Source: an uncultured virus (IMG/VR IMGVR_UViG_3300033571_018919)
Taxonomy: Duplodnaviria; Heunggongvirae; Uroviricota; Caudoviricetes
Reading direction: 5' to 3' (one strand)
DNA: 64,000 nucleotides
Virus record (IMG/VR): IMGVR_UViG_3300033571_018919
Location: 1-64,000 of that record
Positions 1 to 64,000 of this stretch are shown here, piece after piece. Both the position numbers and the translations under genes were made by a program. The stretch's first letter is position 1, and each line of letters begins with the position of its first letter. Below the pieces are notes generated by a model that did not search any database, had not been told where the DNA came from, and saw only the letters and a list, made by a program, of their open reading frames with translations.

Positions 1-267
1 ATGAAATTTAATTGGCGTGGGTACACATATAATGATGAAATGCGTAATAGTGCTATTCTTCAATTAACCTACGTAGGGTTGCGATTTAACGAAGCCAAAT
101 CTCAAAACCCATTTGCATATTATACGGCAGCAATTACCAATAGTTTTTGCCGTGTACTAAACAGTGAAAAACGTAATCAAAACATACGTGATGACATATT
201 AGAAATAAATGGATTAAATCCTAGTTGGACTCGTCAAGGTCAAGTTAGCATGTCATACGAAGAATAA
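1..267 (+). CDS. gp55: T4-like late-transcription sigma factor, C-terminal part (N-terminus probably upstream of the window)
   Basis: Motif 'NPFAYYTAAITNSFCRVLNSEKR' resembles the gp55 'NPFAYFT..' motif. It lies directly upstream of gp47-gp46, as in T4-like phages. Confidence 0.8.
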   Translation: MKFNWRGYTYNDEMRNSAILQLTYVGLRFNEAKSQNPFAYYTAAITNSFCRVLNSEKRNQNIRDDILEINGLNPSWTRQGQVSMSYEE

Positions 268-276
268 CCTTTTATA

Positions 277-305
277 TTGTCATTTTACAAAATTTAGATT
301 AAACT
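277..305 (+). promoter_or_regulatory. sigma70-type promoter for the gp47 operon
   Basis: TTGTCA (277-282), 17-nt spacer, TAAACT (300-305). The ATG at 312 sits where +1 is expected. Confidence 0.6.
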
Positions 306-311
306 TACTGG

Positions 312-1325
312 ATGAATAACCTTTTTAAAAAAGCAGCACTGTTTACAGATATACATTTTGGTCTTAAGACAAATAGTTTACAACACAATCAAGATTGCGC
401 CAATTTTATCGATTGGTTCATAAGTGAGGCTAAAAAAGAAAATTGTGAAACTTGTTTCTTTTTAGGAGACTGGCATCATCATAGAGCAAGTATTAATTTA
501 CATACTCTACAGTTTAGTTTAAATGCTATCGAGAAGTTAAGTCAAAATTTTGACAGGGTATTTTTTATACCAGGTAATCACGATTTATACTATCGTGACA
601 GGCGAGACATACATTCAGTTGAGTGGGCTAAACATTTACAAAACATAACTTTAGTAAATGATTGGTACACTCAAGGAGATGTCACTATTGCGCCATGGTT
701 AGTACAAGACGATTACAAAAAACTGAAGAAATTAAATGGCAAATATTTGTTTGGTCATTTTGAATTACCACACTTCTATATGAACGCTATGGTAGAGATG
801 CCAGACCATGGTGAACTTAACGAATCTCACTTAGGCGGATTCGATAAAGTATTCAGTGGTCATTTTCACAAAAGACAAGCAAGAAAAAATATTTGGTATA
901 TGGGAAATGCTTTTCCACACAACTATGCTGATGCGGGTGATGATGCACGTGGTATGATGATATTAGAATGGGGTGAAGAACCAGTATTTAAATCATGGCC
1001 TAGACAACCATTGTATCGAGTGTATAAACTAAGTGAAGTATTAGAAAATCCAGAAGGCTTATTATTAATTGATAGTCACGTTCGTGTTCATTTAGATATC
1101 GATATTAGTTATGAAGAAGCTAATTTTATTAGAGAAACACTTATACCAGAACATAAATTAAGAGAAATGACATTAATACCTATGAAGCTTGATCAAATTG
1201 AACAACAAGGATTTGAAGGATTGCAGTTTGAATCTGTGGATCAAATTGTTATTGATCAAATTAATGCGATAGAATCCGCAGCATTTGATAAGAAAATATT
1301 GTTGGACATTTATAATAATCTATGA
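312..1325 (+). CDS. gp47: Recombination endonuclease subunit (Mre11/SbcD-like metallophosphoesterase)
   Basis: Phosphoesterase motifs DIHFG, GDWHH, GNHD and GHFH; overlaps gp46 (ATGA). Confidence 0.92.
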   Translation: MNNLFKKAALFTDIHFGLKTNSLQHNQDCANFIDWFISEAKKENCETCFFLGDWHHHRASINLHTLQFSLNAIEKLSQNFDRVFFIPGNHDLYYRDRRDIHSVEWAKHLQNITLVNDWYTQGDVTIAPWLVQDDYKKLKKLNGKYLFGHFELPHFYMNAMVEMPDHGELNESHLGGFDKVFSGHFHKRQARKNIWYMGNAFPHNYADAGDDARGMMILEWGEEPVFKSWPRQPLYRVYKLSEVLENPEGLLLIDSHVRVHLDIDISYEEANFIRETLIPEHKLREMTLIPMKLDQIEQQGFEGLQFESVDQIVIDQINAIESAAFDKKILLDIYNNL

Positions 1326-35967: not shown

Positions 35968-38900
35968 ATGGCAGATTATTTTCAAATTAAAAATCAAAGT
36001 ATCTTAAACCCGCCGGCTAATACTAATTTAGGTAATTCTACGAACCAGTTTAATACTGCCTATATCCAAAGTAACTTAGTCGTTTCTAATACTACGTTTA
36101 CGTCATCAACATTAGGTGCTCCTAAAATTACTACAATTACATACCCTGGCGACGATACTGCCGCAGATACAGCAGGTGGTCAAACAATTACATTAACTGG
36201 TAGTGGTTTTCTAAATGGAGCTAGTGTATTAATCAATGGGAGTGCGGTTGGTGTTGTTACAGTAGTTAATAATACAACAATAACCTTTACAAGCCCTGCT
36301 AACAATGCAGGTAGTTATGTTCTTTATGTGATTAATACAGATGGTAGCACAGCTATTGCTATACCAGGTATACAATATAGTGGCACACCAAATTGGACTA
36401 CAGCAGCAGGAACTTTAGGTACAGTCTATGAAACACAAAGTTTTAGTAATACAGTTGTTGCTACAGGTGATGCTCCGATAAGTTATAGTTTGTTTAGTGG
36501 CACGCTACCAACGGGTGCTACACTAAACAGTAACGGTACAATAACTGGAACAAGCAGTAGTACCGCAAATTCAACGACCTATACATTTACTATTCGTGCA
36601 ACCGATAACGAACAACAGGATACTAACAGACAATTTAGTTTAACAATTAATCCAGACGTGGTTACATGGAGTAACCCAGCTAATGCCTCAGTTATCAACT
36701 CATATGAATATGTTGCCATAAGCAATACAACATTAAGTGCAACAAACTTAGTTGGTGGCAACATCAGTTATACTGGTGCAAATTTACCAGCTGGTATTAC
36801 TGTTACTGGTAATTTATTAACCGGAACATCAAACACTGTTGCTAATACAACGGTTACTCTAACTGCTACTTCAAATACATCAACTAGAAGTGCTGATAGA
36901 ACAACTTTTATCAATGTACAACAGGATGTTGTAACATGGAACAGTCCTGCAAACAACAATACATATACATCCGATGTTAATAGTGCGATTAGTAACGTTA
37001 CACTAAATGCAACCAGCGCCGCTGGTTTTAGTGTTAGTTATAGTGCAAATACATTACCAACAGGCTTAACAATAACTGGTAACGTAATTGCTGGAACTCC
37101 AACTGTTGCAGCAAATTCTAGTTCACTAATTACTGCAACAGCGGCGACAACAAATAGAAGTGCTACAAGAACTTTTAACTGGGTAATACAAGTTGGCAAC
37201 GATCCGTATTTTAATTTAGTTACGTTATTGTTAAATGGCGAAACAAGTAGTAATTATTGGACACAAGATGCAAGTACAAATAAATTCGCAGTTACAGTAG
37301 TTGGTGATACAAGACCTATGGCATTTAGTCCATATGAAACTGTTTGGAGTAATTATTTTGATGGCACTGGGGATTATCTATCTTCGACTGCCACATCTGC
37401 GACTCAAATGGGTTCTTCAACATTTACAACGGAACTTTGGTATTACTGCAATTCGTTGGCAGCAGATCAGTGTCTTTATATTCAGCAAGATGCAGATGTA
37501 CAAAATAATAGCAGTTTGTCCTACGGATTCTTTGTTGCCCCAACTAGTGGTACATTAACGGTTCTTCTTGCTCAATCAAATAGTAGATATGACTTTGCCG
37601 TTACTAATGCAATAAAGACAGGAACTTGGTATCACATTGCCCTTGTCAGAAACGGAAATGTATTTACTTTGTATATTAACGGAGTAAGTGCTGGCACAAC
37701 TACGCAAGCAATTACCCTCAACTCAAACGCCCTAAATTACATCGGCACTTATATCAACGCTGGCGCAGGCCAGAACATGTCGGTTAATGGGTACATCAGC
37801 AATTTTAGAATTGTAAAAGGCACTGCACTTTACACATCAAACTTTACACCACCAACATCACCACTCACAGCGATAGCAAATACAAGTTTATTAACATGTC
37901 AAACAAACAGATTAATAGATAACAGTACAAATAATTTTACACTAACAAGAAACGGAGATGTAAGTGTACGTAATTTTGGTCCATTCACAGAAACAGATTT
38001 AACAACAGGTAGTGGTTATTTTGATGGTACCGGCGACTACATTTCTGCACCGTATTCAGCTAGCACAGCTAATTGGTACAGCTCTAATACTACTATAGAA
38101 ATGTGGGTTTATCCTTTTTCTATAACAGTTAGCGGTACTAATTCTGCACCCCTCCAAATTTCTCATGGTCAATTTAATTCTGATGTATTATATTGGAGTT
38201 TTGGTTATAACGCTTCAGGTCGTGTGGGGTTATATTATTTCAACGGTGGAACACAAAACGTTACTGCTACTTCTGGAACGGTTTTAGTAAATCAGTGGAA
38301 TCATCTTGCTATGACACATAACAATTCTTCGGGAGAAATCAGATTATATTTAAATGGAACTTTAGTAGGTACAGGTACTAAATCTGGAACTCCGCAGTCA
38401 AGTGCTTCTTTCCCAATAAACATAGGTGTTGCTCAATCAACTTATTACACTGGTTATATTTCTAATTTAAGAATAGTTAATGGTACATTAGTTTACACCG
38501 CTAACTTTACCCCACCTACTGCACCACTTACAGCAATTACAAATACAAGCCTATTAACATTACAAAATCGATTTGGTGAAAACAATAATCGTTTTGTCGA
38601 TACATCTGGCATCGGTAATTTTATTACCCGTAACGGTAACACAACGCAGGGTGCGTTATCGCCGTTTAGTCAGACAGGATGGAGTTACTATCAAGATGGT
38701 ACTTCAACATATCTATCATATGGTTCAAGTGCAGATTTTACTTTTGGTACAGGCGATTTTACAGTTGAAGCTTGGATTTTTGTAACAAGTATAGGAACCG
38801 GTTTTAGTATGTTTAATGTTGGTAGTGCAAATGCCGGAGCTTATAGTTTGTATGTTAACGGTTCTGGTAATATTGAAAGCACAAGATACGGTGATGGTGC

Positions 38901-41130
38901 CGGAGCAGGAAGAACGACATCAACAATAACTACAAATACTTGGGTTCACATTGCAGCTGTCCGTGCCAGCGGCACTGCTAGAGTTTATATAAATGGAACT
39001 TCAGACTCCGGTGCAACTTATAGTATGGGTAATATTACTGCCACAGTAGCAGAAACAGGTCGTATTTGGCAAACAGGATACACAGGAACAAGTTATATTT
39101 CTAATCTTAGAGTTTGTAAGGGTACAGCGGTGTATACGAATAACTTTACACCAGCTACATCACCTTTAACTATAACAAGTCAAAGTGCGTCAAATTGCGT
39201 ATTACTTACATTCCAAAATAATAGATTCGTTGATGCATCTAGTTCTCCAAAAACCTGCACACCAAGTGGAACACCATCTGTACAATCTTTCAGTCCATTC
39301 GTATCAGCAATCATAACACCAACAAGTTATAGTGGTTATTTTGATGGCAATGGAGATTATTTAAGTGGCCCACAAAACGCAGCATTTGCATTTGGGACAG
39401 GTAGCTTTACAGTTGAATTTTTTGTTTATACAATAAGTACAACAGCGCAAATGGTATTTGATACTTTGCAACCAAATACACCCGGTGGCGGATCAAATAG
39501 ATTTTATGTTTATATTAAGTCCGATCAGAAAATAGTTACTGGACCTGCCACACAAGAATTAACTAGCACAGGTACTATACAACTTGGTGCATGGACCCAC
39601 GTAGCTGTCGTTCGTAATGGAACATCAAGAATAATTTATATTAATGGTGTTGCAAATGGTTCTGATACCTTTAATAATAATTTAACTGAAAACTATTGCA
39701 CTATTGGTTTTGACGCAGCAACAAACGGCACCATTATTATTAATGGATATTTAAGTAACTTGCGGGTCGTGAAGGGTACAGCAGTTTATACTTCAGCATT
39801 TACCTCACCAACCTCACCATTAACTGCAATATCAGGTACAAGTTTATTAACATGTGAGTCAAATAGATTTATCGATAACAGTACAAACAATTTTACAATC
39901 ACAGTAAACGGAAATTCAATACCAAGACAATTTAATCCGTTTGGTAATACATCAACTACAGGAACTAATTCAGTTTATGGAATAACTACAGTAGGCGGTA
40001 GTGGATACTTTGACGGATCTAGTAATTACTTACTAGTACCAGACAATACGGCGTTAGAATCCTTTAATGATTTTACAATTGAATTTTGGGTATATTTTAC
40101 TTCTGTTTCAACAGCGCAGATTATAATAGATAAGGGCTGGAACAACGGAGGCGGTTATAGCCCTTATTTCATACTTCTATCTGGTGGGAATTTATTAGCA
40201 TATGCTTCTTCTTCAGGTACAGTTAACGACGTACTATCTGGTGCGTCTTTTGGAGCCATGGTGGCGGGTCAATGGTATCATATTGCTTTGACTAGATCGG
40301 GTTCTGCTATTAAATTATTTACCAATGGTGCTGTAATTACTTCTGCTACAAATTCATCTACACTTATGAGTAACAGTACTAATTTGGGAGTAGGATCCGT
40401 TCCATTAACAGGTGCTTTCTTACTTAATGGTTATCTATCAAATTTGAGAATAATCAAAGGCTCTGCTGTTTATACTTCAGCATTTGTGCCTCCGGTTGCA
40501 CCAGTCTCTGCAATCAGTAACACAGTTTTATTGTTGAACTTTACAAATAGTGGTATCGTTGATTATACAAGTAAAAATAATTTACAGACTGTAGGCAATA
40601 CGCAATTAAGTACAACACAAACTAAGTTTGGCAATGCGAGTATGAGTTTTGACGGTAGTGGGGATTACGTTGCTGCTCTATCAAATCAAACAGGTGTATT
40701 TGGAACAGGCAATTTTACTATTGAGGGGTGGTTTTATTGGAATTCACTTGCAAGTGAATCTGCTATTGTTTTTAACAATGATGGAGCCACTTTTCGTTTT
40801 TGGACTTTTTACATATTTCCAGCAAGCAAATTGCAGTGGGGCAAATGGGACGCAAACTTGATAACCGGCGCAACAACTTTAGTAACTGGACAGTGGTATC
40901 ATATCGCCGTGACACGGGCCAGCGGCACAGTTAGATTGTTTGTGAATGGCGTAGTTGATGGCTCCGCAACTGATACCACCAATTACAATTCAACTGGATT
41001 CGTGGAACTTGGTAAAAGTCATAGCGGTAATTTTTTCAATGGGTATGTGGATGATTTTCGCATCACCAGAGGTTTCGCACGTTATACTGCTAACTTTACG
41101 CCACCAACAACGGCGTTTTTAACTTATTAA
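35968..41130 (+). CDS. Adhesin-like protein: IPT/Ig-like domains followed by about six LamG/ConA-like domains
   Basis: Paralog of 30408-35489 with the same repeat framework. Confidence 0.85.
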   Translation: MADYFQIKNQSILNPPANTNLGNSTNQFNTAYIQSNLVVSNTTFTSSTLGAPKITTITYPGDDTAADTAGGQTITLTGSGFLNGASVLINGSAVGVVTVVNNTTITFTSPANNAGSYVLYVINTDGSTAIAIPGIQYSGTPNWTTAAGTLGTVYETQSFSNTVVATGDAPISYSLFSGTLPTGATLNSNGTITGTSSSTANSTTYTFTIRATDNEQQDTNRQFSLTINPDVVTWSNPANASVINSYEYVAISNTTLSATNLVGGNISYTGANLPAGITVTGNLLTGTSNTVANTTVTLTATSNTSTRSADRTTFINVQQDVVTWNSPANNNTYTSDVNSAISNVTLNATSAAGFSVSYSANTLPTGLTITGNVIAGTPTVAANSSSLITATAATTNRSATRTFNWVIQVGNDPYFNLVTLLLNGETSSNYWTQDASTNKFAVTVVGDTRPMAFSPYETVWSNYFDGTGDYLSSTATSATQMGSSTFTTELWYYCNSLAADQCLYIQQDADVQNNSSLSYGFFVAPTSGTLTVLLAQSNSRYDFAVTNAIKTGTWYHIALVRNGNVFTLYINGVSAGTTTQAITLNSNALNYIGTYINAGAGQNMSVNGYISNFRIVKGTALYTSNFTPPTSPLTAIANTSLLTCQTNRLIDNSTNNFTLTRNGDVSVRNFGPFTETDLTTGSGYFDGTGDYISAPYSASTANWYSSNTTIEMWVYPFSITVSGTNSAPLQISHGQFNSDVLYWSFGYNASGRVGLYYFNGGTQNVTATSGTVLVNQWNHLAMTHNNSSGEIRLYLNGTLVGTGTKSGTPQSSASFPINIGVAQSTYYTGYISNLRIVNGTLVYTANFTPPTAPLTAITNTSLLTLQNRFGENNNRFVDTSGIGNFITRNGNTTQGALSPFSQTGWSYYQDGTSTYLSYGSSADFTFGTGDFTVEAWIFVTSIGTGFSMFNVGSANAGAYSLYVNGSGNIESTRYGDGAGAGRTTSTITTNTWVHIAAVRASGTARVYINGTSDSGATYSMGNITATVAETGRIWQTGYTGTSYISNLRVCKGTAVYTNNFTPATSPLTITSQSASNCVLLTFQNNRFVDASSSPKTCTPSGTPSVQSFSPFVSAIITPTSYSGYFDGNGDYLSGPQNAAFAFGTGSFTVEFFVYTISTTAQMVFDTLQPNTPGGGSNRFYVYIKSDQKIVTGPATQELTSTGTIQLGAWTHVAVVRNGTSRIIYINGVANGSDTFNNNLTENYCTIGFDAATNGTIIINGYLSNLRVVKGTAVYTSAFTSPTSPLTAISGTSLLTCESNRFIDNSTNNFTITVNGNSIPRQFNPFGNTSTTGTNSVYGITTVGGSGYFDGSSNYLLVPDNTALESFNDFTIEFWVYFTSVSTAQIIIDKGWNNGGGYSPYFILLSGGNLLAYASSSGTVNDVLSGASFGAMVAGQWYHIALTRSGSAIKLFTNGAVITSATNSSTLMSNSTNLGVGSVPLTGAFLLNGYLSNLRIIKGSAVYTSAFVPPVAPVSAISNTVLLLNFTNSGIVDYTSKNNLQTVGNTQLSTTQTKFGNASMSFDGSGDYVAALSNQTGVFGTGNFTIEGWFYWNSLASESAIVFNNDGATFRFWTFYIFPASKLQWGKWDANLITGATTLVTGQWYHIAVTRASGTVRLFVNGVVDGSATDTTNYNSTGFVELGKSHSGNFFNGYVDDFRITRGFARYTANFTPPTTAFLTY
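36625..36659 (+). repeat. 35-bp exact repeat shared by two LamG paralogs (copy at 47419-47453)
   Basis: AACAGACAATTTAGTTTAACAATTAATCCAGACGT occurs at both positions. Confidence 0.85.
37924..37973 (+). repeat. 50-bp exact repeat shared by two LamG paralogs (copy at 48412-48461)
   Basis: AGTACAAATAATTTTACACTAACAAGAAACGGAGATGTAAGTGTACGTAA occurs at both positions. Confidence 0.85.
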
Positions 41131-46851: not shown

Positions 46852-49800
46852 ATGACTACAAAAATTTCTAGTGATAACATACAAACAGCAACACTTAATA
46901 CATTAGGTGGACCTAAAATACAAACGATTACTTATCCAGGTGATGATACTGCTGCTGATCCAGCCGGCGGGCAAACGATTACATTGACTGGTTCAGGTTT
47001 TGAAGCAAGTGCAAGTGTTGTTATTAATACAACAGCAGTTGGTGTTGTTACAGTCGTAAGTTCTACTACAATTACTTTTACAACTCCGGCATTAAGTGCT
47101 GGTAGTTATACTCTTTACGTGATTAATCCAAATGGTGGAACTGCGATTGCAGTGCCGGGTATACAATATAGTGGTACGCCAACTTGGAGTACTGCTGCTG
47201 GTAGTTTGGGTAACGTATACGAAGCTGCTGCAATCAATAATACATTAGTTGCTACTGGTGATGCACCCATTACATATAGTTTGTTTAGTGGTACACTTCC
47301 ACTTACATCAACATTAAACAGTTCTACTGGTGTATTAAGTGGTACAGCAGATGCAACAGCAAGCCCAACTACATATACATTTACAATTCGTGCGACTGAT
47401 GCAGAAAGTCAAGATACAAACAGACAATTTAGTTTAACAATTAATCCAGACGTAGTTACATGGAATAGTCCTGCAAATAATATCACATATACTAGTAATG
47501 TAAATCAGGCTATCTCTAATGTTACAATGAGTGCTACAAGTGCTGCAGGGTATGGTATCACATATACAGCTAATAGTTTACCAACTGGTTTAAGCATTAG
47601 TGGAGCAAACATTACAGGTACACCAACGGTTGTCGCAAATAGTAGTTCATTAATTACTGCAACAGCAAGTACATCGAATAGAACTGCAACCAGAACATTT
47701 AATTGGGTAGTACAGTTAGGCACTGACCCATATTTTAATTTAACTACATTATTATTAAACTCTGAAGCATCTGCAAACGCATGGATAAGTGATAGTAGCA
47801 CAAATAGTTTTGCAATTACTGTTAACGGTGATACAAGACCTGCTGCATTTAGTCCATATGAAACAGTGTATAGTAATCAATTTGATGGCACTGGTGATTA
47901 TTTAACTGTACCAACTAATGCTGCTTTGGATTTTGGTACTGGGGATTTTACAGTTGAACTTTGGTGGTATCCAACTTCATTAGCAGCCGATCATGGATTT
48001 TTAGGAGCGACTGTTGGCGCTGGTTACGATTTTGTTTATAGAACATCTACCGGTTTTAATATAGCAAGGATTAATGTAGCATTTGACAATACATTTGCTT
48101 ATACCGCAGTTGTTAATACCTGGTATCATGTAGCGTATTCTCGCTCAGGAACTAATTTAAGAGTATTTGTTAATGGTGTACAAATTGGCAGTACCGCTAC
48201 AAATAGTATTTCGTATGGTACGAATGGAGGCACCGCAGTTATAGGTGGATCAACAAACGCAGACCGTTTACTAGCAGGATATATGTCTAACATGCGACTA
48301 GTCAAAGGCACTGCACTTTACACATCAAACTTTATACCATCAACAACACCTTTAACAGCAGTGTCAGGTACAAGTTTATTAACATGTCAAAGTAATAGAT
48401 TAATTGATAATAGTACAAATAATTTTACACTAACAAGAAACGGAGATGTAAGTGTACGTAACTTTGGCCCATTTGTAGAAACAGATTTAACAACTGGTAG
48501 TGGTTATTTTGATGGCACTGGAGATTGGTTAACGGCAACGGCTAATTCTGCGTTTGCATTGGGGTCTGGGAATTTTACTATTGACGGTTGGATATATCCA
48601 ACAGCATCAAATGGTATGATTATCGACACTAGAAATACTAATGGAAGTGCAAGTGGATTCGCAGTAGAAACTGATTCATCTAACCAATTTTTAATTTATA
48701 CAGATAGTGCTAAACTAACAGCAGGTACAGCACCTTTAAATATTTGGACTTTTTTTGCTATTGTAAGATCAGGTAGCACTATAACCGTATATGTTAATGG
48801 TGTTAGTGCAGGATCTTATTCTAGTTCACAAAATTTTTCAGATAATGCATTGGTTATTGCTAGTAATGAACCTAAAAATAAATCGTTGACTGGCTATCTA
48901 AGTAATGTTCGTATAGTAAAAGGTACAGCAGTTTATACCACAACCTTTACCCCACCAACAAGTCCACTAACAGCAATTGCAAATACAAGTTTACTGACAT
49001 TACAAAACAGATTTGGTGAAAACAATAATCGTTTTGTTGATACATCCGGTATTAATAATATTATTACACGTAATGGTAATACTACACAAGGTACATTTAG
49101 TCCGTTCAGTCAGACCGGTTGGAGTAATTATTTTGATGGTAGCAGCACACTGTATTTCGCAGGAACACCTATCTCAACAACACAAACAAATTTTACAATT
49201 GAAGCTTGGGTTTATTTAACAGCAGATCCAACATTTGGTGGCGGCGTAGGTCAGGTGGTAGTCGATGGCGGCGGCTTGGCGGGAGGATCATTTTGGGGCT
49301 TCGGTTTAAATACATCAAGAAATATAGTATTCAGATGGTATGACGGAGCATCCGGTTTTAATTGTACTTCTACTAGTGCAGTTTCTCTCAACCAATGGGC
49401 TCACATTGCAGTATCAGTAAGTTCAAATGCAATTAAACTATTTATAAATGGTAATTTACAAAGCACTACAGGAACATCTACCTTAACAAATCGTGGAGGT
49501 AATCAAGGTAACATTAACGTAGGAAGATACGCTACCTCAGATGCTTTGTATGGTTATATTTCCAATGCCAGAATTGTTACTGGTGCCGGCCTTTATTCTA
49601 CCTCATTCACACCAAGCACAACTCCATTAACGACTACTGTTCCTTCCGGAACAGTGGCATTTCTTACTGCCCAGTCAAATAGATTTGTCGATACTAGTAC
49701 AAGTAATAGAACACCTGTTTTAGCTGGATCTACTTCTGTACAGGCATTTAGTCCATTCGTACCTACTACTGAGTATAGCGCAGCTACAGTGGGGGGTAGT

Positions 49801-50937
49801 ATGTATTTTGATGGTACTGGAGATTATTTAACCGTAGCTTCTTCTACTGTATTTGGTTTGGGAACTGAAAATTTTACCTTTGAATGCTGGTTATACCCTA
49901 CAGCAAATCCTGCAAATGGACCAGGTACTATTTTTGATGCTCGTTCGGGAGTAGTAGCTGAAGGTTATGTAATTCGTGCGTTTAATGACAGAACGATTGG
50001 AATTTATACGTCTACAAATTCTTATGTTTATTCTACTGGAACTATTACTTTAAATGCGTGGAATCATATAGCACTAGTTCGAACATCAACGTCTACCAAC
50101 GGTTTAGCTTTCTATATTAACGGAGCGGCTGCCGGAACTGTTACTGTTAGTAGTAATTTGGGAACCTCATGGTCACCATTAATAGGTTACAATAGAGCAG
50201 GTTCAGGATTTGAATGGAATGGTTATATAAGTAATTTAAGACTTATTAAAGGTTCAGCATTCTATACATCCTCATTTTCGGCACCGGTTGCGCCACTAAC
50301 TACTGTTGGAGCAACATTATTACTTAATGGCACTAATAGTGGTATCATTGATTATACTAGCAAAAATAATTTAGAAACAGCTGGTAACGCACAACTATCA
50401 TATAGTGTAAAAAAGTTTGGCAATGCGAGTATGAGTTTTGATGGAACGGGAGATTGGCTAATAATACCAAACAGCCAAAATTTTGTATTCGGCTTTGGTA
50501 ATTGGACAATTGAACTGTGGGTAAGACCAGGAGCAACAGGAAGACAGGGGTTTGTAGCATTAGAAAATGCTGCTGGTACAATCGTCCCATGGGAGTTAGG
50601 AATAAACAATGGAAACACATTCCGAGTGCTTGTGCAAACATCTAGTGGACAGTATATAGTTGATGGAACAACATCTGTATCTACGAACACTTGGTATCAC
50701 GTTGCAGCCGTAAGAAACGGATCTACAGTCACGCTTTATGTGAACGGTACATCAGAGGGAACCCCGGCAAATGTTTCTACCAATGCTTTGGTTTCTGAAA
50801 CATCTCCTATTTACGTCGGAACTTATAACTATGGATTTCCGTTGACCGGCTACATAGATGATCTACGTATCACTAAAGGCTATGCACGTTATACAAGTAA
50901 TTTTACACCACCGACCTCAGCGTTCATTACGTATTAA
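46852..50937 (+). CDS. Adhesin-like protein: IPT/Ig-like domains followed by about five LamG/ConA-like domains
   Basis: Third paralog, one Ig-like and one LamG unit shorter than the other two. Confidence 0.85.
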   Translation: MTTKISSDNIQTATLNTLGGPKIQTITYPGDDTAADPAGGQTITLTGSGFEASASVVINTTAVGVVTVVSSTTITFTTPALSAGSYTLYVINPNGGTAIAVPGIQYSGTPTWSTAAGSLGNVYEAAAINNTLVATGDAPITYSLFSGTLPLTSTLNSSTGVLSGTADATASPTTYTFTIRATDAESQDTNRQFSLTINPDVVTWNSPANNITYTSNVNQAISNVTMSATSAAGYGITYTANSLPTGLSISGANITGTPTVVANSSSLITATASTSNRTATRTFNWVVQLGTDPYFNLTTLLLNSEASANAWISDSSTNSFAITVNGDTRPAAFSPYETVYSNQFDGTGDYLTVPTNAALDFGTGDFTVELWWYPTSLAADHGFLGATVGAGYDFVYRTSTGFNIARINVAFDNTFAYTAVVNTWYHVAYSRSGTNLRVFVNGVQIGSTATNSISYGTNGGTAVIGGSTNADRLLAGYMSNMRLVKGTALYTSNFIPSTTPLTAVSGTSLLTCQSNRLIDNSTNNFTLTRNGDVSVRNFGPFVETDLTTGSGYFDGTGDWLTATANSAFALGSGNFTIDGWIYPTASNGMIIDTRNTNGSASGFAVETDSSNQFLIYTDSAKLTAGTAPLNIWTFFAIVRSGSTITVYVNGVSAGSYSSSQNFSDNALVIASNEPKNKSLTGYLSNVRIVKGTAVYTTTFTPPTSPLTAIANTSLLTLQNRFGENNNRFVDTSGINNIITRNGNTTQGTFSPFSQTGWSNYFDGSSTLYFAGTPISTTQTNFTIEAWVYLTADPTFGGGVGQVVVDGGGLAGGSFWGFGLNTSRNIVFRWYDGASGFNCTSTSAVSLNQWAHIAVSVSSNAIKLFINGNLQSTTGTSTLTNRGGNQGNINVGRYATSDALYGYISNARIVTGAGLYSTSFTPSTTPLTTTVPSGTVAFLTAQSNRFVDTSTSNRTPVLAGSTSVQAFSPFVPTTEYSAATVGGSMYFDGTGDYLTVASSTVFGLGTENFTFECWLYPTANPANGPGTIFDARSGVVAEGYVIRAFNDRTIGIYTSTNSYVYSTGTITLNAWNHIALVRTSTSTNGLAFYINGAAAGTVTVSSNLGTSWSPLIGYNRAGSGFEWNGYISNLRLIKGSAFYTSSFSAPVAPLTTVGATLLLNGTNSGIIDYTSKNNLETAGNAQLSYSVKKFGNASMSFDGTGDWLIIPNSQNFVFGFGNWTIELWVRPGATGRQGFVALENAAGTIVPWELGINNGNTFRVLVQTSSGQYIVDGTTSVSTNTWYHVAAVRNGSTVTLYVNGTSEGTPANVSTNALVSETSPIYVGTYNYGFPLTGYIDDLRITKGYARYTSNFTPPTSAFITY

Positions 50938-56117: not shown

Positions 56118-59100
56118 ATGTTTTTCAAAGAATTTTTATACAAAGCACAAACTCAAACTTTCACCTCCAATAAGCTTTTTACTTGGGGATTAGGCACATC
56201 TGGTCAATTAGGCTCTTACGGTGAATCAAATTTATCACTAGTACAAGCAAGTGCCGGACAATCACACGTGCTTGCTATTACTAGTGATAGTAGATTGTTA
56301 TCGTGGGGAGTTAACAGTGATGGTCAATTGGGCGATGGCACTACTATCAATAAATCTAATCCTGTACAGGTAGGTCAACCTGGTTGGAAAAAAGTAGCAG
56401 CAGGATTACTTCATAGTGTTGCAATTAGAAGTGACGGAACATTATTTTCATGGGGCTCAAATAGCGTTGGTCAATTAGGATTAAATTTAGGAACAGCGGC
56501 TACAGCTCGCCGGTCTAATCCAACACAAATTGGTTCATTAGCAAACTGGATAGATATAAGTGGTAAAGCAACTACAACAATAGCATTAAATGAAGCTAGA
56601 GAACTGTATGCTTGGGGAAATAATAACTTAGGCCAAATAGGTGTTAACGACACAATCAATAGATCAAGCCCCGTACAAATTGGAATAGGATTAAGTTGGT
56701 ATAAAGTTTCTGTTGGTAGTCATGTTATGGGTGTTACAGTGACTGGTGAACTATATGGTTGGGGAGCTAATGGGGCTGGTCAATTAGGAATAAATGCAAC
56801 AAATAATAGAAGTAGCCCAACTCTAGTTGCTAATTCTGGTTATACTGATGTAAGCATAGGTGAAGGCCATACATTAGGATTAGCGTCAGGTAATTTATTG
56901 TTTGCTTGGGGAAATAACCTTGAAGGACAATTGGGTGACGGTACAACTATATTAAAATCTAGTCCAGTACAAATAGGTTCAAGTTCTTTTACTTTTATTA
57001 GTGCAGCTTCTAGATTTAGTCAAGCAATAAGATTAGATGGGGGATTGTTTGCTTGGGGATTAAACACAAGTGGTCAAATTGGAACTAATAATCAAATAGG
57101 TAGGTCAAGCCCAGTACAAGTAGGAACGAGTAGTTGGTCGCTAGTGGCAAGTAGTTTAGTGAGTGGTTGGGTTATAGGAACCACTTCTGACAAAACTGCA
57201 TATGGATGGGGGGCGAACGGTTCAGGACAATTAGGTAATAATACTACCATTACACGATCAAGCCCGACTTTAGTTGCAAGTTCAATTGTTGGTAATTATA
57301 GTGTGCCAATACAAGTAGGGACACTTTCATGGAATGCAATTTCAACTGGGGGTACACATACAATTGCATTAAGAAGTGATAATTTATTATTTGCATGGGG
57401 TTTAAACACTTCAGGCCAATTAGGTGACAATACAGCGATAAGCAAGTCAAGCCCAGTGCAGATAGGTACAAGTAGTTGGACAGCAGTAACAGCAGGTGAA
57501 GCTGATAGTTCTTTTGCCATTAGAAGTGACAATACATTATGGACTTGGGGTAACGTTACAACAAACTTAACTGGTGGAAATATATTAACAGAAAGTTGGC
57601 AACAGGTAACCAATAATGCAAACAGTTCAATTGGATTAAGAGCAGACGGTACATTATGGACATGGGGAGAAAATAGTTTTGGTCAAATTGGTAATAATAC
57701 CACAATTAATAGATCAAGCCCTGTACAAATTGCAAGTGATAAGAGTTGGTTAAAATTAGGTGAAAATAACAATGTAAATAATGCGGTTGCGGCAATAGAC
57801 TCAAATTATAAACTTTGGGTATGGGGTCGCAATAACACTGGTCAACTAGCCACAGGTGATACGATTAATAGATCAAGTCCTGTATTAGTAATGAGTGATA
57901 AAAGCTGGAGTATGGTATCAGCAAGTAAAGGTATTACTACTGATGGTAAACTTTGGAGTTGGGGAGCAGGTGCTACCGGTTTAATTGGAGACAACACCAC
58001 CGTTGATAAATCAAGCCCAGTGCAGTTAAGTGTTGGTACAAGTTTTACATTGGTTTCCGGAGCTTCAGACTCTAATCGTCATACATTTGCTATAAGCACA
58101 ACTGGATTGTTGTATGGTTGGGGATTTAATAACACAGGACAATTAGGTTTAGGTAATACACTAAACAGATCCCAACCTACTTTATTGGCCTCCCCGTTCG
58201 ACACGTTTTCGTGGAATTTCGTTAGTGTTGGCGGCACTGATGGTACTGGCTCAACAGGTGGCCATACATTAGCTTTAAGAAATGATAATACTTTATATGT
58301 TTGGGGATTAAACAACGTAGGACAATTAGGTAATAATACTACTATCAACCGAAGCTCACCATTACAAGTATCATTTGTTAATATTCCACTAAGTTGGGCT
58401 ACAGTGGCAGCTGCTGCTTCAAGATCAACTGCTTTAGATTTTGATGGAAAATTATGGGGTTGGGGTATTAATACGACCTACGGCGCAGTTGGTGACTCTA
58501 CAACAGTTAACAGATCATCCCCCGTAATATTAACAAGCACTGGTGTTACTTTTGCAAAAATTACGTCAGGATATTTTCACAGTAATGGAATAAGAGATGA
58601 TGGATATTTATATGCATGGGGCGCAAATAATTTAGGAAACTTAGGAAATAATACAACAATTAATAGATCCTCACCGGCACTAATAAGTTCTATTCCAACA
58701 AACTTATCAAGTCCAGTGCAACTAGGTGTAGGTAAATCAAATTGGAGTGCTATCCATTCTGGAACTTCAACACATGCAGCAATCGATGCGACAGGCGCGT
58801 TATACATTTGGGGAAGTAATGCGACAGGTCAATTAGGAAATAATAGTGTTTTTACTCGAACAGGATTAAGAGTACTTGACAATAATAGTTGGAATAGTGT
58901 CAGTGTTGGTGCAAGTCATGTGTTAGCCATACGAAATAATAATCAATTGTATGCATGGGGCGGTAATGCAAGTTTTCAAATTGGCGATAATTCCAGTATT
59001 AATAAATCAAGTCCGATTCTCATTGATTCGGCTAGCTGGCTAAGTGTAAGTGCAGGTATTAACCACTCTCTTGCAATTAAATCCGGGGGAGGTTTATATG

Positions 59101-62063
59101 CATGGGGTAGTGGTTTATTTGGTCAAACCGGTATTATTACAGACATTTATTCTTGGACACAAATAAATGCTGGTACAAACTTTGTTTTAGGTGTAAGACA
59201 AGATAGTACATTATGGGGTTATGGACTAAACACTAGTGGTCAACTAGGAGATAGCACTGCCGCTACAAAATCTAGCCCCACTCAAGTAGGTACGACTAGT
59301 TGGAGTAAAATTAGTGCAGGAGGCTCAAATGCACTTGGTATCACTATAGATGGTAAATTATTTTCTTGGGGTTCTGGATCAACATTTCAACTCGGTGATG
59401 GCACAACAATAAACAAATCTAGTCCAGTACAAATAGGAACCAGTAGCTGGTCACAAATTACTACAGGTACAGCACATAGTTTAGCTATTGACATAAATGG
59501 CAGATTATTTGGTTGGGGTACATCTACAGCATTAAATGCTAGCACAGCTCCATTTAGTTGGACAGTTGTATCTGAAAATACATCACATGTAGCAGCAGTT
59601 CGAAGTGACGGATTGTTGTTTGTATGGGGTCTCAATAGTTCAGGACAAGTTGGAGACAATACAACTATTAATAAATCAAGTCCAGTACAAATAGGTACAA
59701 GTAGTTGGTTAACTGTAAGTAGTGGTGTCGATCATACATTAGCTATAACAAGCGATTATAGATTATTTGCCTGGGGCGGTAACACAGGTTTCCAACTAGG
59801 TGATAACACTACTATAAGTAAATCAAGTCCGGTATTATTGTCAGGTCCTAGTTGGACAACGGTAGTCGCTGCAAATAGTTATAGTATGGCATTAAAATCT
59901 AATAATACATTATGGGCGTGGGGTTTAGGAACTTCAGGTCAATTAGGTACACTAACTGAACCTAAGTCATGGATAGAATTAAGTGCAGGCAATAGTACAA
60001 GTTTAGCGATCCGCAGTGATAATACCTTATGGGGATGGGGATTAAACACTAGTTTTCAAATTGGAAATGGCGCAAGTGTAACACAATCTAGTCCAGTACA
60101 AGTAGATAGTTCATTGAGTTGGATAAAAGTAAGCTCAGGCAATAATCATGGCTTAGCAATTACTAATACAGGAGTTTTATATGGCTGGGGAACAAATGCT
60201 CAAGGTCAAGTCGGGAATAATACATCAGTAAATCGTAGTTTACCTACCCTAGTTGATTCATCCGGTAGTTGGAGTGTAGTGAGTGCAGGTAACAGTTTCT
60301 CATTGGGAATAAAAGAAAATAAATTATACACTTGGGGACAAAATAGCTTAGGTCAGTTAGGACAGGGTGATACTATAACAAGATTAAGCCCAACTCAAGT
60401 AGGATTGAACAATTGGACTGTAATAACTTCAAGCGAAACTAATAATTATGCAGGTGCGATTGATAGTAGTAATAGATTATTTTTATGGGGAGTAAACACT
60501 AATTACCAATTAGGTGATGGCACAACAACAAATAGAAATAGCCCTGTTGCAGTATTTGCTACTGGTACAAGTAGTTATGTTCAAGTAAGTGTAGGAGCAA
60601 GTCATACATTAGCAGTTCAAAGTGATGGCACATTGTGGGCCTGGGGGTCAAATACAAATTACATATTAGGATTAGGTGATACGAATATACGTTCAATACC
60701 AACACAAATGGGTTCAAGTAGTTGGACAAGTGTAAGTGCAGGAACAGATCATAGTATGGCAATCAAGTCTGACGGCACACTTTGGGGTTGGGGATTTAAT
60801 CTTTTTGGACAAGTTGGTCTTGCAACAACTGTGTATTCTTGGACTCAAGTTGCAAACACTGGCCTCACAACACACGCTATTAGAAGTGATGGTTTACTAT
60901 TTGGCTGGGGTTTAAATACTTCAGGGGAAATAGGGGATAACTCGATTATTAATAAATCGAGTCCTGTACAAGTAGGAATCAAAACATGGAAAAAAGTTTA
61001 TAATTTTACGGCTCTAGTTGGAAATCTTGCTTCTGTATTAGCCATTGACAATAACGACAATTTGTTTGCTTGGGGCAATAACACATCCGGAAATTTAGGG
61101 GACAATACAGTAATTAGTAGATCCTCACCTGTTGCGGTGGTGATTAAAGGAACAGGTAGCTATACACAAGTCTTTGTTGGTCCGGCTACAGTTGCAATAC
61201 AAAATGATGGAACACTTTGGTCATGGGGTGCTGGATCCTTTGTCGGAGACAACACAACCATTAGTAGATCAAGTCCAGTGCAGATAGGTTCTAGTACATG
61301 GTCTGCAGTAGGAGGTGCTTTATCCACTATTGCTGCTATAGATGCAACTGGTAGATTATTTACTTGGGGTAACCAATCAGCATCGGGTAGTGGCTCGTTA
61401 GGCACAAACGATCTTATAAATAGATCAAGTCCTACACTAGTTGCAGGCGCACCAGGTGCATTTAGTTGGACAAGTGTAAGTTCTGGTGGGGCTAATCATG
61501 TTTTAGCTATTCGTGAAAATGGAGCTGCGTACGGAACGGGTTTAAATGCTCAAGGTCAGTTAGGTGACAACACTGCAACTAGCAAGTCAACTTTTACTTT
61601 AGTTTCTGGGACAACAAGTTTTACTCAAGTAAGGTGTGGATTTAGTTTTACAATAGCATCAGCAAGTGACGGCACGCTTTGGGGTTGGGGGAACAATGAT
61701 TGGGGGCAACTTACTACTACTTTACCAATTGCTGCTAACAGATCAAATCCGGTTCAAATAGTAGCGCCAGGCCCAACAGTGTATTCTACTGGTCAATATA
61801 ATTTAGCCACAATCTATTCTAATGGTTTATTGTATAATCAAGGATACAATTTAAATGGGATGCTAGGAGATGGAACAACAACTAGTAAGTCGCTACCTGT
61901 TCAAATCGGAAACAATCCGATCATAAATATATCAGTACCCGTACAAATTGGTACCGGCAGCTGGAATCAAGTAAATGCAGGTACTCAATATACATTAGCA
62001 AGAGATACTAATAATGTTCTTTATGCTTGGGGTCAGGATACATCAGGACAATTAGGTTTTTAA
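56118..62063 (+). CDS. RCC1/BLIP-II-like repeat protein (multiple beta-propellers), part 1
   Basis: About 40 repeats of SW..VSAG..H.LAI..D..L..WG.N..GQLGD.T...RSSPVQIG. Confidence 0.9.
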   Translation: MFFKEFLYKAQTQTFTSNKLFTWGLGTSGQLGSYGESNLSLVQASAGQSHVLAITSDSRLLSWGVNSDGQLGDGTTINKSNPVQVGQPGWKKVAAGLLHSVAIRSDGTLFSWGSNSVGQLGLNLGTAATARRSNPTQIGSLANWIDISGKATTTIALNEARELYAWGNNNLGQIGVNDTINRSSPVQIGIGLSWYKVSVGSHVMGVTVTGELYGWGANGAGQLGINATNNRSSPTLVANSGYTDVSIGEGHTLGLASGNLLFAWGNNLEGQLGDGTTILKSSPVQIGSSSFTFISAASRFSQAIRLDGGLFAWGLNTSGQIGTNNQIGRSSPVQVGTSSWSLVASSLVSGWVIGTTSDKTAYGWGANGSGQLGNNTTITRSSPTLVASSIVGNYSVPIQVGTLSWNAISTGGTHTIALRSDNLLFAWGLNTSGQLGDNTAISKSSPVQIGTSSWTAVTAGEADSSFAIRSDNTLWTWGNVTTNLTGGNILTESWQQVTNNANSSIGLRADGTLWTWGENSFGQIGNNTTINRSSPVQIASDKSWLKLGENNNVNNAVAAIDSNYKLWVWGRNNTGQLATGDTINRSSPVLVMSDKSWSMVSASKGITTDGKLWSWGAGATGLIGDNTTVDKSSPVQLSVGTSFTLVSGASDSNRHTFAISTTGLLYGWGFNNTGQLGLGNTLNRSQPTLLASPFDTFSWNFVSVGGTDGTGSTGGHTLALRNDNTLYVWGLNNVGQLGNNTTINRSSPLQVSFVNIPLSWATVAAAASRSTALDFDGKLWGWGINTTYGAVGDSTTVNRSSPVILTSTGVTFAKITSGYFHSNGIRDDGYLYAWGANNLGNLGNNTTINRSSPALISSIPTNLSSPVQLGVGKSNWSAIHSGTSTHAAIDATGALYIWGSNATGQLGNNSVFTRTGLRVLDNNSWNSVSVGASHVLAIRNNNQLYAWGGNASFQIGDNSSINKSSPILIDSASWLSVSAGINHSLAIKSGGGLYAWGSGLFGQTGIITDIYSWTQINAGTNFVLGVRQDSTLWGYGLNTSGQLGDSTAATKSSPTQVGTTSWSKISAGGSNALGITIDGKLFSWGSGSTFQLGDGTTINKSSPVQIGTSSWSQITTGTAHSLAIDINGRLFGWGTSTALNASTAPFSWTVVSENTSHVAAVRSDGLLFVWGLNSSGQVGDNTTINKSSPVQIGTSSWLTVSSGVDHTLAITSDYRLFAWGGNTGFQLGDNTTISKSSPVLLSGPSWTTVVAANSYSMALKSNNTLWAWGLGTSGQLGTLTEPKSWIELSAGNSTSLAIRSDNTLWGWGLNTSFQIGNGASVTQSSPVQVDSSLSWIKVSSGNNHGLAITNTGVLYGWGTNAQGQVGNNTSVNRSLPTLVDSSGSWSVVSAGNSFSLGIKENKLYTWGQNSLGQLGQGDTITRLSPTQVGLNNWTVITSSETNNYAGAIDSSNRLFLWGVNTNYQLGDGTTTNRNSPVAVFATGTSSYVQVSVGASHTLAVQSDGTLWAWGSNTNYILGLGDTNIRSIPTQMGSSSWTSVSAGTDHSMAIKSDGTLWGWGFNLFGQVGLATTVYSWTQVANTGLTTHAIRSDGLLFGWGLNTSGEIGDNSIINKSSPVQVGIKTWKKVYNFTALVGNLASVLAIDNNDNLFAWGNNTSGNLGDNTVISRSSPVAVVIKGTGSYTQVFVGPATVAIQNDGTLWSWGAGSFVGDNTTISRSSPVQIGSSTWSAVGGALSTIAAIDATGRLFTWGNQSASGSGSLGTNDLINRSSPTLVAGAPGAFSWTSVSSGGANHVLAIRENGAAYGTGLNAQGQLGDNTATSKSTFTLVSGTTSFTQVRCGFSFTIASASDGTLWGWGNNDWGQLTTTLPIAANRSNPVQIVAPGPTVYSTGQYNLATIYSNGLLYNQGYNLNGMLGDGTTTSKSLPVQIGNNPIINISVPVQIGTGSWNQVNAGTQYTLARDTNNVLYAWGQDTSGQLGF

Positions 62064-64000
62064 ATGCCAACGAATTCACCAGTTTTATTAGGAAACAAAT
62101 TACCATATAATTTACCAGAGCCTCAAAAAGTTGACAACAATAGTTGGACACAAGTTAGTGCATTTAACGACTTTACAGTAGGGTTGAGGTCTAACAGTAT
62201 CTTGTATGCATGGGGCACAAATAATTCTTACCAAATTGGTGATGGTACTACACTAAACAAATCAACACCAACTCAAATTTCAAATAGTAGTTTCTTAGTG
62301 GTAAGTGCGGGCTTTGATCATAGTGCTGCGATTACCACTAACAATACACTATTTGTTTGGGGAAACAGTGCTAGTACTTTTGTTCAAACTATTAATTTCT
62401 CATGGACTAAAGTTGCAAGTTCAGGTAACCACACATTAGCTATTCGTAATGATAATACATTATGGACTTGGGGATTAAACACCGCAGGTCAATTAGGTGA
62501 CGGTACAACTATTAATAAATCAAGTCCAGTACAAATTGGTTCAGGTACATGGAATGATATTAGTGCAGCAGTAAGTCATTCTGTAGCAATTGACAGTGAT
62601 TACAAACTTTATGTTTGGGGTCAAAACAATGCCGGACAAATAGGCGACAATACATCGATTAACAAATCTAGTCCCGTTCAAATAGGTTCGAATAGTTGGC
62701 TACAAGTTGCATCTGGTAATAGTTATACTGTTTCAATAAACTCATTAAATGAAATGTTTGCGTGGGGTTTAAACACAAGTTATCAACTTGGGGATAGAAC
62801 AGTTATTAACAAATCTAGCCCTGTACAAATAGGTTCTACTTTTAGTTGGTCAAGTGTCAGTGCAGGCGTAGATCATAGTTTAGCAATAACAACCGATAAT
62901 CAATTATATATTTGGGGTAATCCAGCTGGTGCAGGTATACAAGAACCAACTACAATATATTCATGGACGCAAGTAACCGCAGGTAATATTTACACAACTG
63001 CTATTAGAAGTGATGGCAGTCTTTGGACATGGGGTAGGAACACTGAAGGACAATTAGGTCAAAACAATGTTATACTTCAAAGTAGTCCTGTACAGGTAGG
63101 TAATAGTAGTTACACACAAGTATCAGGCAAATGGAGTCATACAAGTGCAATTAAAGCTGACAGTACAATAATAGGATACGGTAGCAATACATACGGGGAG
63201 CTTGGTGATGGCACAACTATTGCAAAATCAAATCCAGTTACATTATCTTCTAGCTTTACAAACACAAGCTGGACTTCAGTTAGTGCAAGTGTAAATCACA
63301 CAGCAGCAATTAGAAATGATGGTAGAATTTATATTTGGGGTTTAAATACATCAGGTCAATTAGGTGACAATACTGCAATAAGCAAATCAAATCCTGTTAG
63401 TTTAGCAAGCCCATTTGACACAAGTAGTTGGACACAAGTAGATTTAGGAAGAGACTTCGCCCTTGCAAGAAGATTAGATGGTAAATTATATGCATGGGGA
63501 TTTAATGATTTAGGACAATTGGGAATTGTAAATTCTACTTTCCCAATTGGTGGCGATACTTTAAACAGAAGCAATCCAGTATTAATCAGTGATAGTAGTT
63601 GGATTCAAGTAAGTGCAGGCTTTGATCATAGTTTAGCTATACGCTCGGACAATACATTGTGGACATGGGGTAGCAGTGTGGCCATAGGATTAGTGACAGA
63701 ACCAATGTCATGGCTCGCTGTGTCAGGTGGTGCAACACACACATTAGGTATAAGAGATAATGGCACGTTATGGACATGGGGTACTAATGATCAAGGTCAA
63801 TTAGGCAATTCAACAACTGTTATACGCTTAAGCCCAGTTCAAATCGGATTAACTAGATGGGCAAGTGTAAGTGCAGGTAGTAGTTATTCTCACGCTATTG
63901 ATCAAGCTGGTTTATTATATGCATGGGGTTTAAATTCAAGTGGACAGTTAGGCGATAATTCATCGATTAATAAATCAAGCCCAGTACAGATAGGATCTAG
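62064..64000 (+). CDS. RCC1-repeat protein, part 2 (absent from the ORF track; open to the window end)
   Basis: ATG immediately after the TAA of part 1, in the same frame. Manual translation MPTNSPVLLGNKLPYNLPEPQKVDNNSWTQVSAF... shows no stop to 64000 and continues the RCC1 repeats. Confidence 0.9.
   Translation, partial: MPTNSPVLLGNKLPYNLPEPQKVDNNSWTQVSAFNDFTVGLRSNSILYAWGTNNSYQIGDGTTLNKSTPTQISNSSFLVVSAGFDHSAAITTNNTLFVWGNSASTFVQTINFSWTKVASSGNHTLAIRNDNTLWTWGLNTAGQLGDGTTINKSSPVQIGSGTWNDISAAVSHSVAIDSDYKLYVWGQNNAGQIGDNTSINKSSPVQIGSNSWLQVASGNSYTVSINSLNEMFAWGLNTSYQLGDRTVINKSSPVQIGSTFSWSSVSAGVDHSLAITTDNQLYIWGNPAGAGIQEPTTIYSWTQVTAGNIYTTAIRSDGSLWTWGRNTEGQLGQNNVILQSSPVQVGNSSYTQVSGKWSHTSAIKADSTIIGYGSNTYGELGDGTTIAKSNPVTLSSSFTNTSWTSVSASVNHTAAIRNDGRIYIWGLNTSGQLGDNTAISKSNPVSLASPFDTSSWTQVDLGRDFALARRLDGKLYAWGFNDLGQLGIVNSTFPIGGDTLNRSNPVLISDSSWIQVSAGFDHSLAIRSDNTLWTWGSSVAIGLVTEPMSWLAVSGGATHTLGIRDNGTLWTWGTNDQGQLGNSTTVIRLSPVQIGLTRWASVSAGSSYSHAIDQAGLLYAWGLNSSGQLGDNSSINKSSPVQIGS

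Follow-up and report, generated by a model that had tools for sequence, protein, structure and literature searches.

The RCC1-like propeller is known from single domains such as human RCC1 (1a12), UVR8 (4dnv), the HERC2 RLDs (3kci and 7q40), RPGR (4jhp) and BLIP-II (1jtd), all of which have seven blades and belong to the same repeat family (Pfam RCC1, RCC1_2 and WD40_RLD) as the proteins considered here. In other propeller proteins, a blade is donated by another chain, as in Sec13 with Nup145C or Sec31, a domain is inserted between blades, as is the I-domain of integrin alpha, or several propellers are intertwined in one protein, as in the triple propellers of DDB1 and SF3B3. In the RCC1-like propeller of human UBR5, blade 2 carries a UBA-containing insert (about 270 residues) and is left three-stranded, and a dSBB insert longer than 220 residues separates blades 5 and 6 (PMC10830417). 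Among phages, the jumbo phage phAPEC6 is reported to encode eleven RCC1-like proteins of unknown function, for which a role in DNA ordering is proposed (PMC7247149), and RCC1-only giant proteins are given as simple repeats in a preprint on giant genes (10.1101/2023.11.21.568195). Here, we describe two adjacent RCC1 genes of an uncultured virus in the Caudoviricetes (IMG/VR record IMGVR_UViG_3300033571_018919), in which whole RCC1-like propellers appear to be inserted into the blades of other propellers. The analyzed window is the first 64 kb of this 127168-bp record; positions beyond 64000 refer to the rest of the contig.

The RCC1 frame covers positions 56118..75641 of the contig and comprises 6507 codons and 105 blades. 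It is divided by an in-frame TAA at 62061-62063, directly followed by an ATG, into two open reading frames (ORFs) of 1981 and 4525 amino acids (aa), and all of the 88 PF00415 matches in the contig fall inside these two ORFs (56172-75611). We propose that the two products form a two-chain tree of 15 seven-bladed RCC1-like propellers and 5 LamG domains, in which each unit that is bracketed by the blade of another forms a ring of its own, and we put the probability of this reading at roughly two in three. We lean, with somewhat less assurance, toward a wider proposal: that the fifteen propellers are nested by recursive self-insertion to nine levels, that the N-terminus of one chain and the C-terminus of another meet to close the outermost ring, that four shared propellers lock both chains, and that the same grammar is found in hundreds of uncultured jumbo-phage genes, some of them with the assembly spread over three genes. 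The separate folding of each bracketed unit into a ring and the co-folding of the two chains are what we infer from the patterns described below.

The brackets are read from the strands of the blades, A to D. The translation was cut at the strand C motif (..WG..), for which 105 anchors were curated by hand, and the units were classed by the spacing between strand C and the strand A that follows; five units without an automatic anchor were classed by length and the anchor of unit u54 was corrected by hand. The spacing is 26-38 aa in 72 normal units, 14-22 aa in 14 open units, which lack the GQLG..SSPVQ hairpin and strand D, and 41-50 aa in 14 closing units, which have a second SPVQ-like strand. 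In the five remaining units, it exceeds 240 aa, and a LamG domain follows strand D, ahead of the next strand A. The strands balance, since there are 105 C strands and 77 + 28 = 105 D strands, with one spare D strand for each blade that lacks one.

Given to a stack parser, the 105 tokens (72 normal, 5 normal with LamG, 14 open and 14 close) form a valid parse only at 7 blades per unit; 5, 6 and 8 fail. None of 300000 token shuffles gave a valid parse, while 6655 of 100000 were merely balanced, and a chance origin of the bracket pattern is excluded. A separately written semi-Markov tokenizer, trained on the curated units of the same protein, returned the identical token string. By their D-core score, 10 of the 14 closing segments resemble a D strand; one more, KSPTLVA, does so by eye and three are degenerate. 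Other ways of classing the units were rejected. The classes are almost resolved by unit length, except that u14, which has 61 aa and an A-B hairpin insertion, lands among the closings. When the insertions and deletions called by hmmalign were used for the classing, the insertion was placed wrongly in 5 of 14 closings (u17, u39, u61, u91 and u93) and u61 was taken for an opening. A widened regular expression for strand C gave 144 anchors, many of them false.

The openings also have features of their own. The first strand after an opening reads (I/V)YSWTQ(V/I) in about 5 of 14 cases (for example at 59148-59165, 60834-60851 and 62958-62975), as against the usual SSWSxVSAG, and open units often lack the GQLG loop (..WGSSVAIGLV..). 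Together, this start and the lost loop look like a dedicated entry joint.

The parse yields 15 propellers of 7 blades, nested to nine levels, and the five LamG domains (Table 1 lists the parts that lie in the window). The root consists of units 1, 9, 10, 18, 19, 20 and 105 and holds propellers 1, 2 and 3 in its blades 1, 3 and 6. Propeller 4 sits in blade 3 of propeller 3 and itself holds propeller 5 in blade 3 and propeller 7 in blade 5; propeller 6 sits in blade 6 of propeller 5. Further down, propeller 8 sits in blade 4 of propeller 7, propeller 9 in blade 5 of propeller 8, propellers 10 and 11 in blades 3 and 5 of propeller 9, propellers 12 and 13 in blades 3 and 5 of propeller 11, and propeller 14 in blade 5 of propeller 13. 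There are six leaves (propellers 1, 2, 6, 10, 12 and 14), and a nested chain leads from propeller 3 through 4, 7, 8, 9 and 11 to 13, with propeller 5 branching off propeller 4. The LamG domains lie between blades 6 and 7 of propellers 4, 8, 9, 11 and 13, all downstream of the window, and PF13385 and PF02210 are among the Pfam families of ORF2 (P0001). All 14 inserted units run from strand A to strand D. A 2+2 closure, with strands C-D at the start of the chain and strands A-B at its end, is found in the root only, and there it extends across two chains.

The ends of the two ORFs fit this tree. ORF1 begins with 19 aa, in which no N-terminal attachment domain was recognized, followed by strand C of the root propeller at aa 20, and it ends with ..WGQDTSGQLGF, just past strand C of blade 7 of propeller 5. 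ORF2 resumes with NSPVLLG, which is strand D of propeller 5, followed by LPEPQKV, the closing strand of propeller 4, and it ends with strands A and B (..YSEVSAGNSFTGARAII), which fit to complete blade 1 of the root. If so, ORF1 leaves the root and propellers 3, 4 and 5 unfinished, and ORF2 should complete these four propellers, which would then be shared by the two chains.

A first-pass annotation of the window, made from its sequence alone, had marked nine openings and four closings and had forecast how the propellers still open at the end of the window would finish. The nine units without the GQLG..SSPVQ hairpin are found where it placed them (Table 1; the openings in propellers 3 and 4 start at 59505 and 59910), as are the four closing strands. 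The four pairs closed in the window hold 7 blades each, three being leaves and one a 7-blade unit with a leaf in its sixth blade, and six levels are open at nucleotide (nt) 64000. Beyond this point, the open propellers take 5, 2, 3, 2, 4 and 1 further blades with a closing strand after each, exactly as forecast.

The similarities among the blades follow the nested numbering. When all pairs of A-B-C segments were scored, blades with the same nested index were more alike (score excess +3.9, z = 7.8-8.0 against random rotations and permutations), a signal to which the open units may add, as they have degenerate C blocks in common and are concentrated at blades 3 and 5. Propellers 8, 9, 11 and 13 are mutual best matches in register, and the best match of propeller 4 is propeller 11. 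Because the propellers of this spine match in register and because the placement in blade 5 recurs (propellers 9, 11 and 13 each sit in blade 5 of the preceding spine propeller, propeller 8 in blade 4 of propeller 7), the pattern suggests that propellers 4, 8, 9, 11 and 13 are paralogs and that the spine has grown by duplication and self-insertion.

A natural variant separates one bracketed unit from its surroundings. The orthologs P0003 and P0005, at 55-61% identity to ORF2, comprise 72 units, compared to 65 in ORF2. Their open unit 9, units 10-16 and a closing strand stand where ORF2 has an intact unit 9, and the blades that flank the indel are clearly orthologous to those in ORF2 (..GLVTEPxSWLAV..). 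The indel corresponds to exactly one bracketed 7-blade unit, so that such a unit acts like a single insertion module, located in the C-D loop. The search for relatives recovered 805 giant RCC1 proteins at E <= 1e-10, and tokens were counted in 119 listed proteins other than ORF2. Exactly 7 blades were held by 324 of the 584 brackets that close within one of these proteins, and the parses were perfect for P0003 (9 of 9 brackets), P0031 (8 of 8), P0060 and P0065 (7 of 7 each) and five proteins with 6 of 6. Thus, nesting is strongly supported at the level of the sequence architecture.

Several observations weigh against the proposed tree. The strand C anchors are a hand-curated list, and this protein served to train the tokenizer. 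In the automatically tokenized relatives, 260 of the 584 brackets do not count 7, and we attribute these mostly to tokenizer errors in diverged sequences. Joining the tokens of ORF1-type and ORF2-type relatives gave no full parse in 11 attempts, about 3 of which likely concern true neighbors; we ascribe the failures to tokenizer errors in diverged proteins and to the fact that most pairs are not true neighbors. The joined units add up to 112 = 16 x 7 for P0061 with P0086 and for P0054 with P0100, to 138 for P0018 with P0014 and to 160 for P0047 with P0004. Furthermore, the presence of the RCC1 pair in the virion and its binding, to which we return below, are predictions from the gene context.

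The number of blades can also be read in another way, as 105 = 15 x 7 is also compatible with plain tandem propellers. By this account, the frame would encode 15 tandem RCC1-like domains arranged as beads on a string, and the short and long units would be variable linkers. Four relatives (P0009, P0020, P0021 and P0063), in which the tokenizer finds 70-80 units and at most one open or close signal, look like such simple arrays; either they are plain tandem propellers or they have a junction that escapes the tokenizer. An insertion placed between strands B and C would be invisible in sequence. For the locus described here, we nevertheless consider a string of beads quite improbable. The short and long units do not recur at intervals of 7, but when read as brackets they balance around 7. 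Sequential mod-7 numbering gave a score of -0.96 (z = -2) with the segment scoring for which nested numbering gave z = 8, and the indel in the orthologs removes exactly one bracketed unit.

The first-pass annotation had described a single, continuous, tree-shaped protein. The nested tree was upheld in the sequence by the parse, the blade-index similarity and the ortholog indel, but the single protein was not: the in-frame TAA and the ATG that follows had been overlooked, and the resulting split into two chains inside a blade is conserved in the relatives. Six of these (P0003, P0004, P0005, P0012, P0014 and P0033) start at the same blade point as ORF2; P0003, P0004, P0005 and P0014 begin with MP.NSP..LGN like ORF2 itself, P0012 begins with MANTSSPTLLGN and P0033 with MRSLPTILGN. 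Conversely, P0006 and P0018 have an ORF1-like start and end with ..WGQD..GQLG. In 32 of the 119 relatives, strand D is the opening element, within the first 12 aa, and in 22 the protein stops immediately after a strand C block. Two proteins, P0035 and P0075, combine both features and would be the middle piece of a three-gene set, and 26 start with strand C and end with strands A-B, as a self-contained single chain would.

Could the TAA at 62061 instead be a sequencing error, a recent nonsense mutation or a codon that is read through, so that the frame yields a single chain of 6507 aa? The stop and the ATG share a frame here and in locus L065, where the same TAA and ATG are found, and a Pfam RCC1 match spans the TAA. 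We give this explanation very little credence. As described above, the boundary falls at the same blade point in the relatives. The downstream ORF is in another frame in L111, where stop and start overlap as ATGA, and in L063, where they overlap as TAATG, and because these overlaps are out of frame, readthrough or a recoded stop is ruled out for both. In the present locus, the ATG directly follows the stop and an AGG is located 7-10 nt upstream of it; record G001 has the identical junction, although it may not be an independent assembly. From these junctions and gene ends, we conclude that the two-gene split is real and conserved. For annotation, this means that gene boundaries inside a blade are real in the giant RCC1 family and that neighboring RCC1 genes should be read as one assembly.

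For structure prediction with AlphaFold2, we used aa 3695-4655 (961 aa), which contain propellers 13 and 14 and one LamG domain. With an alignment of 4 sequences, the model was unusable, at a predicted local distance difference test score (pLDDT) of 40.7. With 82 sequences, the pLDDT was 77.4, exceeding 90 over most blades, and the predicted template modeling score (pTM) was 0.50. Only 12 loci, including the query's own sequence (L006), cover the 961-aa module in one high-scoring segment pair, and 91 of 137 stop before the LamG domain. In the model, the leaf folds as an RCC1-like domain: its comparison with solved RCC1-like domains (VIA) gave Z values of 20-39, with 354 of 370 residues aligned to UVR8 (4dnv_A; Z 39.3, root mean square deviation 3.7 Å) and 351 residues aligned to RCC1 (1a12_A; Z 31.0, 4.2 Å).

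The remainder of the model adds to the objections. Propellers made of sequential blades had been named beforehand as the outcome of fragment predictions that would refute nesting, and the only confident AlphaFold2 model seems to give such a contiguous ring. The closing strand (model residues 607-618) is a coil with a pLDDT below 50, and the open linker (243-249) is also below 50. The matches to RCC1-like domains span model residues 246..671, 299..671 or 249..571, and those to the WD40-repeat propeller chains of ODA16, Rsa4 and Cdc4, which we take to have eight blades, span residues 247..649. As read from these alignment ranges, the 7 child blades and the next blade (622-668), which is blade 6 of the parent according to the parse, seem to be placed in one contiguous ring. 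The sequence parse works only with 7 blades per unit, whereas the alignment ranges hint at a ring of 8 blades for the leaf and the blade that follows.

One explanation is that the insertions are real in the gene but that the fold ignores the brackets. The chain would then form unequal contiguous rings, for example of 8 and 6 blades, in which the blades without strand D are three-stranded and the spare D strands are loops. This would agree with the contiguous ring at residues 253-668 and the unstructured closing strand, and a three-stranded blade at the site of insertion is also described for UBR5 (PMC10830417). We consider it unlikely all the same. It does not account for the count of 7 in 14 of 14 brackets and in the 324 brackets of the relatives, nor for the closing segments that score as a D strand (10 of 14). 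The contiguous-ring model was weighed below the sequence evidence because its extension to the whole protein would leave the root with about four blades, most of them three-stranded, and because the alignment is shallow over the LamG domain and blade 7. It was also weighed lower because the disputed blade is orthologous to one that comes after an intact blade in a natural variant without the leaf: unit 17 of P0003, located after the insertion, is a clear ortholog of unit 10 of ORF2, located after the intact blade, and should therefore keep its ring.

We also considered whether the parent can close without its child. In a fragment complementation run, the two halves of the parent (model residues 18-246 and 606-961) scored 0.56, as compared to 0.00 for the best of 3 controls; the runs had a contact agreement of at least 87% and a partner pLDDT of at least 74. 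The mark used for complementation is reached by 116 of 157 solved complexes and by 2 of 215 mismatched pairs, and at scores of 0.60 or less by 18 of the 157 complexes and by both of the mismatches. The model thus gives weak support for a docking of the parent halves with the ring intact, and hence against a fold that ignores the brackets. The result may reflect the likeness to solved RCC1-like domains and adds little.

Under the proposed tree, a child would be a set of 7 complete blades (ABCD x 7) that enters one of its parent's blades at the C-D loop. That parental blade would stop after strand C, and its own strand D would follow only after the last blade of the child. As each link from D to A has only 2-4 residues, strand A1 of a ring with seven complete ABCD blades should begin near the end of strand D7, and in the parent the end of strand C and the start of strand D would be neighbors in one sheet, so that, given the standard topology of the blade, a whole ring could fit into the C-D loop without strain. 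Each ring would be clamped by the blade of its parent, resulting in a rigid, branched body held together by two chains, in which strands A and B at the C-terminus of ORF2 and strand C at the N-terminus of ORF1 would come together in a 2+2 closure of the root. As a fiber or adhesin, such a body could offer many propeller and LamG surfaces, with glycan-binding faces, to the envelope of the host.

The gene context provides some indications about the role of the pair. The CheckV completeness of the 127168-bp record is about 25%, and a second record of the same virus has 220867 bp and is only 61% complete, for which reason we assign the virus to the jumbo phages; its capsid protein is 65-68% identical to jumbo-phage capsid proteins. 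All large ORFs are on the + strand. Upstream of the pair, Pfam identifies a T4-like portal, a Gp23-type capsid protein and several giant proteins rich in LamG and Ig domains, and ORFs between 16124 and 55622 match PHROG tail-fiber families. A tail-fiber assembly chaperone gene adjoins the RCC1 frame on its upstream side (Table 1), which places the pair at the end of a cluster of tail-fiber genes. On the 3' side (contig 75702-81472) are two methyltransferase-like genes, one 2OG-Fe(II) oxygenase-like gene and two genes without an assigned role, followed by ribonucleotide reductase. From the tail-fiber context, the product is probably a branched, host-binding fiber or adhesin of the virion, and the same context makes a chromatin or DNA-ordering role, as proposed for the phAPEC6 proteins, less likely.

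Table 1. Features of the RCC1 gene pair and the adjoining chaperone gene, with positions in the window unless stated otherwise.
Feature	Position	Strand	Basis or remarks
Tail-fiber assembly chaperone gene, 168 aa	55609..56115	+	Pfam Phage_tail_APC, E 5.6e-15; PHROG tail fiber assembly and chaperone families
ORF1, 1981 aa, units u1-u40	56118..62063	+	Pfam WD40_RLD 1109 bits, RCC1 816 bits, RCC1_2 585 bits
Predicted leaf propeller 1, u2-u8, 7 blades, after strand C of root blade 1	56235..57278	+	Opening 56175-56213; closing SVPIQVG 57300-57320
Predicted leaf propeller 2, u11-u17, in root blade 3	57594..58688	+	Opening 57537-57575; closing SSPVQLG 58707-58727
Opening u20 in root blade 6, start of predicted propeller 3	59094..59132	+	Closes beyond the window (aa 6424-6431)
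Openings u23 (propeller 3 blade 3) and u26 (propeller 4 blade 3), separated by two full blades	59505..59948	+	Spacing and parse
Predicted propeller 5, u27-u32 and u40; blade 7 spans the gene boundary	59967..62093	+	Spacing and parse
Predicted leaf propeller 6, u33-u39, in blade 6 of propeller 5	60837-61910	+	Opening 60780-60818; closing SVPVQIG 61932-61952
Stop/start junction, TAA and in-frame ATG, between strands C and D of one blade	62061..62066	+	Sequence; ..WGQDTSGQLGF, stop, MPTNSPVLLG..
ORF2 (P0001), 4525 aa in total, 65 units	62064..64000 in the window, to 75641 on the contig	+	Translation
Closing strand LPEPQKV in ORF2; fits blade 3 of propeller 4, the strands A-C of which are in ORF1	62112..62132	+	Spacing and parse
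Openings u42 (62349-62387), u46 (62904-62942) and u51 (63657-63695), starts of predicted propellers 7, 8 and 9	62349..63695	+	All close downstream of the window

Three giant proteins of 1693, 1720 and 1361 aa are encoded at 30408-35489, 35968-41130 and 46852-50937, each with 5-6 Laminin_G_3 domains and He_PIG/TIG Ig-like domains. The LamG type of the RCC1 pair is the same as in these three proteins (GYLSNVRIVKG motif), and LamG modules may have been shuffled among the fiber genes. Another giant structural gene, a 2642-aa ORF at 18305-26233, has no Pfam family and only weak matches to PHROG tail-fiber families. At the start of the window, a gene pair at 312-3085 (Metallophos and AAA_23/SMC_N) is SbcCD-like in appearance.

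If the fold follows the brackets, a giant protein can be a tree of identical domains that is built by repeated self-insertion according to a simple grammar that can be checked. This would raise the question of how a ring folds when its halves are thousands of residues apart or located on different chains. It would also bear on how phages generate and vary the surfaces by which they bind their hosts, and on the design of scaffolds for the rigid display of many binding modules.

No description of propellers nested in propellers was found in a search of full-text literature, which did not extend to papers available by subscription only. To our knowledge, none of Sec13, integrin alpha and DDB1/SF3B3 has a recursive arrangement of propellers in propellers, or four rings shared by two chains. 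The root described here resembles the single RCC1-like domains in that it begins at strand C and ends with strands A and B, in a 2+2 closure. Unlike in these contiguous domains, 14 of the 15 units sit inside the blades of other units and run from A to D, lacking their own velcro closure, and four units would be shared between two chains. As for phAPEC6, the similarity is that jumbo phages related by their capsid encode many RCC1-like proteins; in contrast to that account, the available sections of which contain nothing on nesting, the genes of the present virus are located in a tail-fiber cluster. Like UBR5, the pair exemplifies an RCC1-like propeller that tolerates large insertions within and between blades. 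In UBR5, these insertions are small, unrelated domains at one level, whereas here they appear to be whole propellers of the same family, nested to nine levels, with the LamG domains between blades 6 and 7 as a second kind of insert.

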